Part shown: in pieces, positions 13,650 through 18,034 of the stretch | Numbering within the stretch: the first letter of the stretch is position 1 | Layout of the letters: each line of letters opens with the position of its first letter | Source of the DNA: Candidatus Poribacteria bacterium | GTDB lineage: Bacteria > Poribacteria > WGA-4E > WGA-3G | Assembly (NCBI GenBank): GCA_022828145.1 | Contig: JAJEJA010000009.1 | Coordinates: 31,254 to 95,253, forward strand | Direction of reading: 5' to 3' | Length of the DNA stretch: 64,000 bases | Translations under genes and position numbers: made by a program | The notes under the pieces: model-generated | The model's database searches: none | Seen by the model: the letters and a program-made list of their open reading frames with translations, nothing else | What the model was told of the DNA's origin: nothing

Positions 13650-13678
13650 TTGACAAACCGAACTTTTTGTGATATTAT
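13650..13678 (+). promoter_or_regulatory. Sigma70-type promoter for tyrS
   Basis: TTGACA (13650-13655), 17-nt spacer, TATTAT (13673-13678). Confidence 0.6.
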
Positions 13679-13708: not shown

Positions 13709-14944
13709 ATGTCAAATGTCTTTGAGATCCTGCAACAACGAGGTTTCGTTCAACAGTGTACTAACGAAGAAATCGTATCACGTCTACTCACTGAAACGCA
13801 GATAGCATATTATGTCGGTTTTGACCCAACAGCAGATAGTCTGCACGCCGGTAGTCTTGTCCCGATTATGGCAATGGCACATCTACAGCAGGCTGGTCAT
13901 AAACCCATTGCGATAATAGGCGGCGGCACCACCATGATCGGTGACCCGACAGATAAAACCGAAATGCGACCTATGATCTCTGCTGAACAGATCGAAAAAA
14001 ACGGCGCACGTATACTCAAACAACTACAACGCTACATCCAATTAGATAACGCAGTAGGACTATTCCTAAACAACGCTGAATGGCTGCTTTCACTAAACTA
14101 TGTAGAATTTCTACGCGAAATTGGTAGACATTTTCGCGTCAACGAAATGATGCGCGCCGAAGGATATAGACAAAGACTTGAAAGGGAAATGGGACTCTCT
14201 TTTCTCGAATTTAATTACCAACTCTTACAAGCTTATGACTATCTACGACTATTTCAGGAACATAATTGTGTGCTACAATTGGGTGGGGATGATCAATGGG
14301 GAAATATACTTGCAGGCGTTGACCTCGTAAGGAGAGTTGAAGGTGAACGCGTACACGGATTAACATTTCCACTACTAACTACCGCTGGCGGCGCAAAAAT
14401 GGGTAAAACTGTAGGTGGTGCTATATGGTTAGATCCAGATAAAACAACGCCTTATGAGTTCTATCAATACTGGATCAACACCGACGACCGAGACGTTGAA
14501 CGATTCTTAGCATTTTTCACTTTCTTGCCAATGGAAGAGGTAAAAAGACTGGGAAAATTGGAACATGATGAGATAAGAGAAGCAAAAAATATACTGGCTT
14601 ACGAAGCAACAAAACTTGCACACGGTAAAGAACAAGCCGACAGATCACAGGAAACTTCACAGGCTGCTTTTGGAGGAGAAGGTATAGACCTTGACGCAAT
14701 GCCAACTACCACAATATCCAAAGACTACCTGGAAGACGGTATACCTATCATCCAACTTTTTCATGAAGCCGGTTTAGCAAACTCACGTAGTGAAGCACGT
14801 AGACTCATAGAACAAGGTGGTGCTTATGTTAATGAAGAACAACAGAAAGATATAAAAATCGTAATTGATACAAATTCTTTAAAAGACGAGGCTTTGCTCC
14901 TACGCGCCGGTAAAAAACGATACCACCGTATTCTTCTAAATTAA
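13709..14944 (+). CDS. tyrS: Tyrosine--tRNA ligase
   Basis: 411 aa. The class I motifs are a DPTADSLHAGSL variant of HIGH and the KMGKT form of KMSKS. A C-terminal S4-like domain is present. Confidence 0.9.
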   Translation: MSNVFEILQQRGFVQQCTNEEIVSRLLTETQIAYYVGFDPTADSLHAGSLVPIMAMAHLQQAGHKPIAIIGGGTTMIGDPTDKTEMRPMISAEQIEKNGARILKQLQRYIQLDNAVGLFLNNAEWLLSLNYVEFLREIGRHFRVNEMMRAEGYRQRLEREMGLSFLEFNYQLLQAYDYLRLFQEHNCVLQLGGDDQWGNILAGVDLVRRVEGERVHGLTFPLLTTAGGAKMGKTVGGAIWLDPDKTTPYEFYQYWINTDDRDVERFLAFFTFLPMEEVKRLGKLEHDEIREAKNILAYEATKLAHGKEQADRSQETSQAAFGGEGIDLDAMPTTTISKDYLEDGIPIIQLFHEAGLANSRSEARRLIEQGGAYVNEEQQKDIKIVIDTNSLKDEALLLRAGKKRYHRILLN

Positions 14945-15079
14945 ATTATTTGACATAACCCCAAATTATATGATATAATACTTTGATGATGTAGTTTAAT
15001 TAAACTTTTTCTCTTGTATCACGTTTTATCTAATAATTACAGTTTATACTACCAACTAAGGTATTCAGGATTTCATAGA

Positions 15080-15226
15080 TGAAAAAACTTGAACACATTG
15101 CCTACATTTCAGCGCACAAGAATAGGTCCCAGTCCATCCGGACAAGTTCACGGGATCACGCTTTATACTTTTGGGCATATTTTACGACCTTATTATACCC
15201 GTTTACGCACTGCGGGGGTAGGTAGT
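15080..15226 (+). other. Small ORF (48 aa) with an aromatic-rich C-terminal half. Candidate leader peptide or small protein upstream of DAHP synthase
   Basis: MKKLEHIAYISAHKNRSQSIRTSSRDHALYFWAYFTTLLYPFTHCGGR. AGGA lies 10-13 nt upstream of the ATG. The ORF is followed by the intrinsic terminator at 15286. Confidence 0.2.
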
Positions 15227-15285
15227 GATAGCCTAAAAGAAGGCTAAAAGCAAGACAGTATAAGTTACAATGGATTTCACGCTTC

Positions 15286-15327
15286 ACCCCCAACGTCGAA
15301 AAACTTCGGTGTTGGGTTGTTTTATTT
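15286..15327 (+). terminator. Intrinsic terminator-like hairpin with a U-run, 50 nt upstream of DAHP synthase
   Basis: Stem cccaacgtcgaa / ttcggtgttggg (two G-U pairs) followed by ttgttttattt. Confidence 0.5.
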
Positions 15328-15377
15328 AATAATAAGCGTGTTGACGAATTCAGTCTTTTCGGAGGATATTAAAAATT

Positions 15378-16394
15378 ATGGTTATTGTCACCAAACCGGA
15401 TGCAACGCCAGATCAAATTGATAAGATAGTCAAAAGGGTTGAAGGCGTGGGTTTGAAAGCACAGATTTCGACGGGTGAACAACGTACCGTCATCGGTGTC
15501 ATAGGAGATAAAACATTGCTTGGAGATATGCCAATCGGATCAATGTCGGGTGTCGAAAAAACGATGCCTATCACGGCACCCTATAAATTAGCGAGCCGAC
15601 AGTTTCGGGAAGAACCCACCATCATTGCTGTCAACGGAACGAAGATCGGGGGACGAAAACTTGCGGTTATGGCAGGACCCTGTGCAGTTGAAAGCACTGA
15701 ACAGATCGTTACAATAGCAAAATACGTCAAGAATGCTGGCGCAACTTTCATACGAGGCGGCGCATTTAAACCCAGAACCGGTCCATATAGTTTCCAAGGC
15801 TTCGGGCTCGAAGCACTCAAAATGCTCGCTACCGCAAAACAGGAAACAGGATTAGGAATCGTAACTGAGGTAATGACACCAAGCGAAGTCGAAATTGTAG
15901 GTGAACATACTGACATCTTTCAACTCGGCACACGCAATATGACTAACTTCTATCTATTGCGCGAAGTAGGACGAACAAAAAAACCCGTCATATTAAAAAG
16001 AGGTCTTGCTTCAACAATCGAAGAATGGCTACTCGCCGCAGAATACATACTATCAGAAGGGAATCCTGATGTCATCCTGTGTGAACGCGGAATTAGAACA
16101 TTTGAAACACATACACGAAACACACTTGATCTCAATGCTGTACCTGCTGTACACGAATTAAGCCATCTGCCAATCGTCGTTGACCCAAGCCACGGAACAG
16201 GTATCAGAAGTCTCGTAAGTGATATGACAAAGGCATCCGTAGCATCCGGCGCAGATGGATTATTGCTGGAAGTACATCACGATCCTGACCATTCAATGAC
16301 AGGAGATGGGGCACAATCACTCTTTCCTGAACAATTTGAAAAACTTATGCAAGATATAAAACCAATTGCAATCGCTGTCGGACGAGAAATATAG
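15378..16394 (+). CDS. aroF: 3-deoxy-D-arabino-heptulosonate 7-phosphate synthase, type I-beta, with an N-terminal ferredoxin-like regulatory domain (Thermotoga type)
   Basis: 338 aa. N-terminal MVIVTKPDATPDQIDKIVKRVEGVGLKAQISTGEQRTVIGVIGD, then the catalytic barrel AGPCAVES...GGAFKPRTGPYSFQG...KKPVILKRG...ILCERGIRTFE, closely matching the T. maritima DAHPS architecture. Confidence 0.85.
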   Translation: MVIVTKPDATPDQIDKIVKRVEGVGLKAQISTGEQRTVIGVIGDKTLLGDMPIGSMSGVEKTMPITAPYKLASRQFREEPTIIAVNGTKIGGRKLAVMAGPCAVESTEQIVTIAKYVKNAGATFIRGGAFKPRTGPYSFQGFGLEALKMLATAKQETGLGIVTEVMTPSEVEIVGEHTDIFQLGTRNMTNFYLLREVGRTKKPVILKRGLASTIEEWLLAAEYILSEGNPDVILCERGIRTFETHTRNTLDLNAVPAVHELSHLPIVVDPSHGTGIRSLVSDMTKASVASGADGLLLEVHHDPDHSMTGDGAQSLFPEQFEKLMQDIKPIAIAVGREI

Positions 16395-16480: not shown

Positions 16481-18034
16481 GTGGATGACTTTGAATCAAA
16501 ACAGGAAAAGGTCTATATTTTTGATACAACACTCCGAGACGCTGAACAGACCCCTGGTGCTGCACTCGGTATTGAAGAAAAATTAGAGATCGCAAAACAC
16601 CTCGCAAAACTAAACGTTGATGTCATCGAAGCTGGTTTCCCAATTTCTTCTCCAGGTGATTTTGATGCTGTTGAAAGAATATCACACGAAATAGAAGGTC
16701 CCGAAATCTGTGCACTTTCACGCGTTGTGGAAAAAGACATTACGGCTGCATGGAAGGCTATTAAAGACGCACAACGGGCACGCATTCACACCTTTGTCGG
16801 CACATCAAATATCCACATGGAAAGGATTACAAGAACGACTCCTGAACGCACATTGGACATGGCTGTTGACGCAGTTGCTTACGCAAAGAGTTTATGTAAA
16901 GATCATCCAGACGCAACTGTAGAATTCTCACCAATGGATGCTGGACGTACCGAACTGTCATATCTATATAAAGTCGTAGAAGCAACTATTGACGCAGGTG
17001 CTACTGTTGTAAACATACCCGAAACAGTCGGGTGGACAGTACCCACAGAATTTAGCAATCTCATTGCGGGAATCATGGAGAATGTAGCAAATATTGATGA
17101 CGCGATCATAAGTGTACACTGCCACAACGATTTAGGGTTGGCAGTAGCGAACAGCATTGCCGCAATTGAACAGGGCGCACGACAAGTAGAATGTACAATT
17201 AATGGACTCGGAGAACGCGCAGGTAATACTTCACTTGAAGAAGTCGTAATGGTTATACGAACACGGCGCGATTACTTCAAAAGATACTATACTGATATAA
17301 ACACGAAAGAAATTGTTCCTATTAGTAAACGGGTTAGTCGCACGATGGGAATTCCGGTCCAACCCAATAAGGCTATTGTGGGAGAAAACGCATTTGCACA
17401 CAGTTCCGGAATACATCAAGACGGTATCATAAAATCACGCGTGACTTTTGAAATTATTGACCCAATAGAGATCGGTTGGAAAGAGAGCCAGATTATTCTC
17501 AGTCCACGTTCCGGACGAAACGCACTCAAACATAAACTAAACGAACTCGGCTACGAATTAGATAAGGAACAATTAGAGAAAGTCTATGAGAGATTCCTGC
17601 AAGTCGCTGATAAGAAAAAAGCAATCCATGATGCTGACCTGGAAGCGATTATGAGTGATGAAATACGTTATGTTCCAACAACTTTCGAACTCGATTATAT
17701 ACAAGTTGTCAGCGGAACAAAAATTGCATCTACTACTACCGTCGGTATTAAAACTGAAGAGGGGTTAATAGAAAACGCTTCTACAGGTGAAGGTCCTGTT
17801 GATGCTGCATTCAAGGCAATTAACCAGATCGTAAAAATTGACCTTAACCTCATTGACTATCAGATCCGTTCAGTAACAGAAGGCGAGGATGCGATTGGTG
17901 AGGTCATGCTAAAGGTACAGGACAACGGAAAGATCATCACTGGAAACGGGGCAAGTACTGATATCATCGAAGCGAGCGCAAAAGCTTATGTTCACGCTGT
18001 CAATAAATTAATACAACTCCGTTCTGAGGGTTGA
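16481..18034 (+). CDS. leuA: 2-isopropylmalate synthase (LeuA/CimA family, with a C-terminal regulatory domain)
   Basis: 517 aa with FDTTLRDAEQTPG, HCHNDLGLAVAN and a LeuA-dimer C-terminal domain. GTG start with a GGAGGA SD. It ends in TGA, so UGA is a stop in this genome. Confidence 0.85.
   Translation: MDDFESKQEKVYIFDTTLRDAEQTPGAALGIEEKLEIAKHLAKLNVDVIEAGFPISSPGDFDAVERISHEIEGPEICALSRVVEKDITAAWKAIKDAQRARIHTFVGTSNIHMERITRTTPERTLDMAVDAVAYAKSLCKDHPDATVEFSPMDAGRTELSYLYKVVEATIDAGATVVNIPETVGWTVPTEFSNLIAGIMENVANIDDAIISVHCHNDLGLAVANSIAAIEQGARQVECTINGLGERAGNTSLEEVVMVIRTRRDYFKRYYTDINTKEIVPISKRVSRTMGIPVQPNKAIVGENAFAHSSGIHQDGIIKSRVTFEIIDPIEIGWKESQIILSPRSGRNALKHKLNELGYELDKEQLEKVYERFLQVADKKKAIHDADLEAIMSDEIRYVPTTFELDYIQVVSGTKIASTTTVGIKTEEGLIENASTGEGPVDAAFKAINQIVKIDLNLIDYQIRSVTEGEDAIGEVMLKVQDNGKIITGNGASTDIIEASAKAYVHAVNKLIQLRSEG

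Follow-up and report, generated by a model that had tools for sequence, protein, structure and literature searches.

A tyrosine-codon-rich leader reading frame and a probable transcription attenuator upstream of the DAHP synthase gene aroF in Candidatus Poribacteria

The aroF gene of Candidatus Poribacteria, which encodes 3-deoxy-D-arabino-heptulosonate 7-phosphate (DAHP) synthase, is probably controlled by a ribosome-mediated leader-peptide transcription attenuator that mainly senses tyrosyl-tRNA. The element was analysed in a 64,000-nt stretch of contig JAJEJA010000009.1 (assembly GCA_022828145.1, positions 31,254 to 95,253, forward strand), hereafter the window, in whose own coordinates all window positions are given. 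An earlier note made from the letters of this DNA had suggested that an aromatic-codon leader peptide attenuates DAHP synthase, and the conserved frame, the antiterminator and the Tyr content of the leader now support that suggestion. The anatomy of the unit, frame conservation, Tyr enrichment, mutually exclusive helices with covariation and the lack of a promoter between terminator and aroF are the observed parts of the case; translation of the ORF, ribosome stalling, the direction and size of the response and the amino acids that count are inferred from them. The unit and the gene behind it comprise the following features.

14950..14979, + strand: promoter of the leader-aroF unit (TTGACA, an 18-nt spacer with TG, TATAAT; 12/12, extended -10)
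15001..15028, + strand: small hairpin UAAAC...GUUUUA in the 5' untranslated region (UTR), a conserved block in alignment A1 and in the 5'-UTR alignment
15067..15070, + strand: Shine-Dalgarno-like AGGA, 8 nt before the leader ATG
15079..15225, + strand: 48-codon open reading frame (ORF) of the leader peptide, ending in TAG (15223-15225); frame intact in 35/35, ATG invariant
15166..15204, + strand: candidate regulatory codons Y30 F31 W32 A Y34 F35 T T L38 L39 Y40 P F42, which align with the (Tyr-Leu)n run of other clades
15214..15228, + strand: region 2, 5' strand of the antiterminator (GGGGGUAGGUAGUGA), containing the leader stop codon
15277..15291, + strand: region 3, 3' strand of the antiterminator (UCACGCUUCACCCCC), whose last three C (15289-15291) are the base of the terminator stem
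15289..15327, + strand: intrinsic terminator with a 12-bp stem CCCAACGUCGAA/UUCGGUGUUGGG (15289-15316), loop AAAC, then UUGUUUUAUUU
15361..15365, + strand: GGAGG Shine-Dalgarno sequence of aroF, invariant in alignment A1 and present before aroF in 34/35 genomes
15378..16394, + strand: aroF, type I-beta DAHP synthase with an N-terminal ferredoxin-like regulatory domain (PF18152 and PF00793; NF006421, 478 bits)

A scan of GTDB species genomes gave 36 Candidatus Poribacteria loci with AroF identities of 74-98%. The leader set comprises 35 distinct Poribacteria sequences, each standing for a genome, with L004 included by hand; the leader ORF was extracted as the frame ending at the conserved motif, and alignment A2 of these 35 leaders is the basis of the helix pairing figures. 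In the window the spacer between the tyrS stop codon (14942-14944) and the aroF ATG (15378) measures 433 bp. The small ORF (sORF) and its terminator stand 5' of aroF in all 35 genomes regardless of the gene further upstream, tyrS being directly 5' of the leader-aroF spacer in only about 11 Poribacteria loci, and the terminator 3' arm, GTTGGG, is found 65-215 nt ahead of aroF in nearly all loci. A reverse look-up of three leader homologues on metagenome contigs gave the order sORF, aroF and leuA in six of six places, each with a divergently transcribed kinase gene upstream of the sORF. As the linkage is found in both search directions, the leader unit belongs with aroF and not with tyrS. A terminator serving tyrS was ruled out: most genomes carry a divergent gene upstream instead. 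The AroF protein of the window is also encoded by metagenome contigs identical to it.

The sORF had been described beforehand as 48 aromatic-rich codons with Y, F, W, Y, F, Y and F among the last 20, and is confirmed at 15079-15225, where it encodes the 48-residue peptide MKKLEHIAYISAHKNRSQSIRTSSRDHALYFWAYFTTLLYPFTHCGGR. Conservation of the ORF upstream of aroF in relatives had been proposed as a check, and the frame proves never to be disrupted: every one of the 35 sequences carries an intact leader ORF, of 43-85 codons. Over these leaders stop codons number 0 in frame against 55 and 71 in the other two frames, and insertions and deletions, including 36-nt repeats, preserve the frame. The in-frame 36-nt unit encodes LASKNLLLKSxQ and varies from one to four copies among leaders. 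AGGA or AGGAA stands at the same distance before the ATG in most of the set, and the leader ORF is predicted to be translated. A peptide profile search retrieved 129 further protein clusters (E <=0.001), all unnamed or "hypothetical", and the named source organisms were Poribacteria; NCBIfam had no family for four leader peptides (E up to 10), and Pfam none for three (E up to 0.01).

A repeat of about 36-39 nt (GCAGCTTGCAA.C..AAAACTTGCTATTGAAAAG) occurs in one to four tandem copies, inside the leader ORF of locus L020 (2535-2909) and in the leader proteins P0040, P0104 and P0115, and is also seen between terminator and aroF in L014, L018, L024 and L030. It may be a pause hairpin or a small mobile repeat.

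The aromatic codons are concentrated at the end of the leader. The last 20 residues in the window include three Tyr, three Phe and one Trp, and at least seven aromatic residues in the last 20 were counted for only 0.7% of the 288 ORFs of 30-90 codons in the six frames of the window. Across the 35 leaders Tyr makes up 20.3% of the last 20 codons versus 2.7% of the rest of the ORF (background in the long ORFs of the window, 3.65%), and among 120 database homologues the corresponding values are 25% and 1.6%. Most genomes have a leader tail ...GLYLYLYLYLYSNDRW before the stop, with four to seven Tyr alternating with Leu. The tail is ...LWALFTLGLYPFLYCGGRW in a middle clade and ...LYFWAYFTTLLYPFTHCGGR in the window clade, and the tails of the three groups align with one another. 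Within the Tyr-Leu run of the clade with the alternating tail (the YLY clade), entropies at the three codon positions are 0.38, 0.14 and 0.51; the second position (A of UAY, U of the Leu codons) is near-fixed, while TAT and TAC, and CTN and TTR, interchange. Since synonymous Tyr and Leu codons swap freely, selection would act on codon or tRNA identity and not on the RNA sequence. Judged by these alignments, what the C-terminal codons conserve is their aromatic character, above all Tyr.

Downstream of the ORF, the hairpin plus U-run previously placed at 15286-15327 is recovered with its stem starting at 15289; the stem (15289-15316) is followed by TTGTTTTATTT to 15327. The terminator helix is 98.8% paired across the 35 genomes, with hairpin energies of -11 to -18 kcal/mol. 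In a dedicated scan it was the only hairpin-plus-T-run site of the window preceded by an aromatic-rich small ORF, and no other attenuator-like small ORFs were found in the window. The terminator stands out because such sites are scarce: the 64 kb hold about two dozen weak candidates, few of them below -13 kcal/mol, and intrinsic termination may not be the usual mode of gene end in this organism.

The 5' arm of the terminator has a second potential partner. In the relatives region 2 consists of the last five codons and the stop (CAACGAYAGGUGGUGA; CGGCGGUAGGUGGUGA in the middle clade), and region 3 (UCACCACCCRGCGUYG), which is the 5' flank and 5' arm of the terminator, is complementary to it. 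The resulting 14-pair antiterminator is 96.1% paired over the 35 sequences. Two of its pairs are compensatory, one being A-U in 16 sequences and G-C in 14, the other U-A in 22 and C-G in 7. None of 500 column shuffles reached the observed pairing or covariation, and sliding the partner strand by 1-3 columns lowers the pairing to 30-70%. One compensatory change is a synonymous GAU-to-GAC in the leader, matched by an A-to-G in the terminator arm that still pairs there, as G·U. The energies of antiterminator hairpins range from -18 to -26 kcal/mol. In most cases the two complete conformations differ by no more than about 5 kcal/mol, as is expected of a kinetically decided switch. RNA folding had been proposed beforehand as a means of revealing an alternative antiterminator pairing, and the pairing has thus been found, with covariation in 35 sequences.

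In the window itself, pairing of 15214-15228 with 15277-15291 yields -25.7 kcal/mol (z -3.15; 0/200 shuffles as stable) and ties up the three C at the terminator base. One base is missing from region 3 in the window clade, and the Trp codon before the stop is replaced by TAG. The minimum free energy fold that includes the 3' arm keeps the antiterminator and leaves a 9-bp hairpin with unpaired GGG before the U-run; by this model the residual hairpin should have no termination activity. Locus L003 carries two changes that weaken the antiterminator. The fold of the whole leader (14986-15330) is not unusually stable (z -1.79), the signal lying in the alternative helices at its 3' end.

In such an arrangement, from where is aroF transcribed? 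The sigma-70 promoter at 14950-14979, a perfect 12/12 match that is absent from the earlier note, sits about 100 nt upstream of the sORF and would place the transcription start near 14986. All 29 Poribacteria leaders of the 5'-UTR alignment have a homologue of this promoter (A-tract, TTGACT, TGTGTTATTAT), and the leader promoter scores at least 10/12 in 30/35 genomes (220 nt scanned); the 5' UTR that follows is 73-190 nt long. Between terminator and aroF, no promoter candidate of at least 10/12 occurs in any of the 35 genomes. The GGAGG Shine-Dalgarno sequence reported for aroF is found as described, at 15361-15365, and the claim of a separate TTGACG promoter directly before the gene is not upheld. 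A TTGACG...GATATT motif is indeed present (15341-15370), but it scores 9/12, falls to 8/12 in L038, the closest relative (97% identical), and has no counterpart above 7/12 anywhere in the spacer of L003. Because its -10 hexamer overlaps the conserved GGAGG, RNA made from this motif would begin at about the ATG and have no Shine-Dalgarno sequence. This candidate, seen in the window only, was rejected, no better one being available in the 35 genomes. As there is no credible promoter between terminator and gene, transcripts that start at the leader promoter and read through are the most likely basis of aroF expression.

A conserved A-rich tract (AAAAAGAAAT) precedes the leader promoter. The 5' UTR of the relatives carries the motif TAAACG(T/C)TTTT...AACGT(C/T)TTA, homologous to the hairpin at 15001-15028 and a candidate small hairpin whose pairing was read by eye, without statistics.

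The geometry of the leader is compatible with control by a translating ribosome. The first base of the stop codon falls 10 nt into region 2 in the window, 13 nt in most relatives and 25 nt in L012. Across the leaders sampled, 5-56 nt separate the aromatic codons from region 2 downstream of them. In the window these distances are 47, 44, 41, 35, 32, 17 and 11 nt, six of the seven being at least 17 nt. The footprint of a ribosome extends some 12-15 nt beyond its A site on the downstream side. Codon distances and ribosome footprint together indicate that a terminating ribosome would cover region 2, and that a stall at most of the aromatic codons would leave it free.

The proposed sequence of events is as follows. 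Transcription would begin from the promoter at 14950-14979, and the 48-codon leader would be translated while RNA polymerase proceeds. As long as charged tRNA-Tyr is in good supply (and, in the lineage of the window, tRNA-Phe and tRNA-Trp too), the ribosome would reach the stop codon and mask region 2; region 3 would then stay unpaired, the terminator at 15289-15316 with its U-run would form, and transcription would end at about 15320-15327, before aroF. With scarce charged tRNAs, the ribosome would stall on the aromatic codons, 11-47 nt short of region 2, and region 2 would be left to pair with region 3. Three G-C pairs would be lost from the base of the terminator, and polymerase would read through into aroF.

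Several observations weigh against this attenuation. The leader is unusually long, with 48 codons here and up to 96 in relatives, where classical attenuator leaders have 14-30, and it is preceded by a long 5' UTR. Simple codon sensing does not call for the moderate conservation seen in its N-terminal codons (M-R/Q-T-L-E-R-N-T-I/T...). In the window clade the Tyr run has decayed to a mixed set of Y, F and W, and the antiterminator adopts a shifted register that sequesters only 3 nt of terminator stem sequence; here the helix is supported by energy and homology, with no covariation within the clade. No 1:2 anti-antiterminator or pause helix was found to be conserved across clades. In the window and middle clades region 2 finds its best upstream partner in codons 5-10 (-13 to -17 kcal/mol); this candidate is not kept in the YLY clade, where upstream pairing is weak and scattered. 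With no conserved 1:2 helix the ribosome-free default is predicted to be read-through, a departure from the trp paradigm, in which super-attenuation would be expected.

Might the short transcript do more than attenuate? The terminated RNA of about 340 nt, or the peptide, could also act in trans, cis attenuation then being only part of the function. Given a very strong promoter and an efficient terminator, the short RNA would be abundant, and the conserved 5'-UTR motif and N-terminal codons are unexplained by codon sensing. There is also precedent, as the Sinorhizobium meliloti trpL attenuator gives rise to the trans-acting products rnTrpL and peTrpL (PMC7298713; PMC7968998). That system offers a model for extra roles of a short transcript or peptide, but evidence of a trans role is lacking for the Poribacteria unit: neither a target nor a partner nor an independent copy turned up, aroF was the only place where the unit was ever seen, and nothing observed requires such a role, which is considered unlikely.

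Somewhat less probable still, the sORF would be an independent gene, possibly for a membrane-associated small protein, with aroF transcribed separately and the adjacency of no regulatory meaning. In favour of this, both the promoter and the terminator of the unit are complete, the C-terminal half of the peptide is hydrophobic, its N-terminus is conserved to a moderate degree, and gene callers predict a "hypothetical protein" in the 129 clusters. Against this, the unit always lies directly 5' of aroF on the same strand, whatever lies upstream, with no promoter of at least 10/12 between terminator and aroF in 35 genomes to serve separate transcription. The stop and last codons are locked in a covarying helix that competes with the terminator, and the C-terminus conserves Tyr content with a variable number of repeats and not a fixed sequence. 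The third-position excess in the N-terminal codons is weak (entropies of 0.57, 0.61 and 0.78 in one clade, none in another), so that by its sequence the N-terminus does not look like that of a normally evolving protein. The earlier note had itself raised an independent small protein or small RNA as an alternative; aroF linkage and the covarying helix tell against it as the sole explanation, and it survives as a possible extra role.

The least probable of these alternatives has the same terminator/antiterminator switch set by a TnaC-like, ligand-dependent arrest through the nascent peptide at (N/S)DRW-UGA: free Tyr would keep the ribosome on region 2 for longer and so promote termination, with no role for hungry codons. 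A leader of this length could fill the exit tunnel, and its DRW-UGA end is near-invariant, with NDRW in 84/120 homologues and UGA-A as the commonest stop context; in the absence of a 1:2 helix, a long-lived ribosome at the stop codon would also aid termination. Nevertheless, the invariance of ...AGGUGGUGA is fully explained by pairing with UCACCACC, the terminal Trp is gone from the window clade, whose stop is TAG, and a roughly ten-fold enrichment of Tyr, with synonymous codons that interchange freely, is the classical mark of a tRNA sensor, so that arrest of this kind is very improbable. The strong promoter, some 340 nt of transcript and the terminator would also suit a known structured RNA, but RNase P RNA, transfer-messenger RNA (tmRNA), 6S RNA, T-box and riboswitch were rejected, as Rfam, with permissive as well as gathering thresholds, and ARAGORN returned nothing, the latter detecting no tRNA or tmRNA gene in the whole window. 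A precursor of a ribosomally synthesized and post-translationally modified peptide (RiPP) was likewise rejected, the neighbours always being aroF and leuA with no modification enzymes; RiPP papers were all that the literature on Poribacteria "leader peptides" turned up.

The genes that the attenuator would control are aroF and, probably, the leuA gene behind it:

16481..18034, + strand: leuA, 2-isopropylmalate synthase (above two NCBIfam equivalog cut-offs: NF002086, 747 bits against a cut-off of 532; TIGR00973, 695 against 599)

The DAHP synthase had been credited with an N-terminal ferredoxin-like allosteric domain, as borne out by the PF18152 match and by full-length alignment of AroF with the T. 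maritima DAHP synthase structures 1RZM and 3PG9. Thermotoga maritima DAHP synthase is feedback-inhibited by Tyr at its ferredoxin-like domain. By analogy, the regulatory domain of the enzyme and the attenuator would together give control at two levels. Of the dual-level control envisaged in the earlier note, the enzyme part thus stands on the domain match and is reasonable with Tyr as the common signal, and the leader part is a prediction of the attenuation model.

leuA follows aroF on the same strand in 38/38 Poribacteria loci, with gaps of 21-343 nt, and in all six metagenome places, where the shortest gap is 34 nt; only a 180-residue C-terminal leuA fragment was called in L087, one of the six. 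Elsewhere, among the other phyla sampled, the order aroF-leuA was seen in only two loci (L065 and L067). In the 13 aroF-leuA spacers examined there are variable repeat insertions, but neither a convincing terminator nor an obvious second leader was seen; aroF and leuA are probably co-transcribed. The spacers of L005 (4017-4285), L015 (4017-4299) and L012 (4017-4169) hold tandem or palindromic GC-rich repeats, for example CGACATCGGACAGGGGGACCCAGTCCCTA, which occurs twice in L005; they are REP- or MITE-like in appearance.

The position of the aroF-leuA pair behind a (Tyr-Leu)n leader suggests bivalent control. Leu makes up 22% of the leader tail, against 13-16% of the rest of the leader and a 9% background in the proteins of the window. 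This signal is weaker than that of Tyr, for which reason Leu sensing is put forward as a hypothesis. That the leader is a bivalent Tyr/Leu sensor of aroF and leuA, working as a three-region attenuator that is on by default, is a tentative proposal, with the balance of probability somewhat against it. If true, the first committed enzymes of two unrelated pathways, aromatic and leucine, would be under one attenuator. With no 1:2 helix in the design, termination would need a ribosome on the stop codon within the antiterminator, and starvation for Tyr or Leu, or failure to translate the leader, would switch on aroF-leuA.

With the E. coli trpL and pheL attenuators the Poribacteria unit shares tandem codons for the pathway product, mutually exclusive 2:3 and 3:4 helices and a stop codon near region 2, but the E. 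coli leaders have 14-15 codons compared with 48-96. Multivalent leaders are also familiar, those of E. coli thr (Thr and Ile) and ilvGMEDA (Ile, Leu and Val) carrying codons for the amino acids of connected pathways. The Poribacteria leader likewise has codons for several amino acids ahead of one operon, but the Tyr and Leu pathways are unrelated and the sensing of Leu is conjectural. For DAHP synthase genes in particular, Tyr-tRNA control of E. coli aroF-tyrA was proposed long ago, as cited in PMC2659441.

The established case of leader-peptide attenuation of a DAHP synthase operon is aroR-aroF of C. glutamicum (Neshat et al., 2014, as summarized in PMC11802643). According to that source, the aroR leader contains Phe-Tyr-Phe codons at which ribosome stalling raises read-through, and the operon is reportedly unaffected by Tyr supply (PMC11802643). 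The two systems resemble each other in having an aromatic-codon leader upstream of DAHP synthase, a likeness drawn from the published description and not from sequence. They belong to different phyla and to different classes of DAHP synthase, that of Poribacteria being type I-beta with a ferredoxin-like domain. Moreover, the Poribacteria leader is much longer, has in most cases four to seven Tyr alternating with Leu, gives Tyr the dominant place and has leuA downstream.

Rfam, whose described families include the Trp, Phe, His, Leu and Thr leaders and the T-box, gave no gathering-score match in the whole window or in 10 related loci, positions 14500-15800 yielding only chance-level hits (E >=2.6), and no description of an aroF leader element in Poribacteria was found in the literature. 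The Poribacteria element is an undescribed, lineage-specific family of a well-known regulatory kind.

Unrelated aromatic-rich sORFs also precede the same class of aroF in seven loci of other phyla:

L040, L055, L066, L070, L076, L078 and L080: other-phyla leaders, 50-420 nt upstream of aroF

Their sources are Syntrophaceae, Smithella, Rokubacteria, Bryobacterales, Acidimicrobiia and one unclassified metagenome-assembled genome. A clear hairpin-plus-T-run terminator follows in six of the seven, the T-run of the Rokubacteria locus L070 being short; one leader reads ...NAYYYWFYTYFASVCPSLRMTC, and four of the seven have a common ...VCP(P/S)(A)L... tail. Rfam had no match in the leader region of these loci. 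Their recurrence supports the attenuation of the Poribacteria aroF and at the same time lowers its novelty. As unrelated aromatic-rich leaders stand before aroF in several phyla, DAHP synthase may be attenuated in far more bacteria than C. glutamicum, the one characterized case.

The analysis offers a concrete regulatory mechanism for Poribacteria, an uncultured phylum of sponge symbionts whose gene regulation is almost undescribed. It adds a well-populated family of leader-peptide attenuators, of at least 129 protein clusters, that is absent from current RNA and protein libraries, and one whose leader is among the few with clear Tyr codons. The unit points to symbionts that continue to match their own production of aromatic amino acids, and possibly of leucine, to supply, which bears on the exchange between bacterium and sponge.

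Two further observations concern tyrS. No T-box or other Rfam element was found upstream of the gene, which has a near-consensus promoter of its own at 13650-13678 of the window (TTGACA, 17 nt, TATTAT with TG; 11/12). In L007 a second, partial tyrS 3' end (2262-2471; 68% identity over residues 341-410) separates the full tyrS from the leader promoter, which suggests a local duplication or rearrangement.

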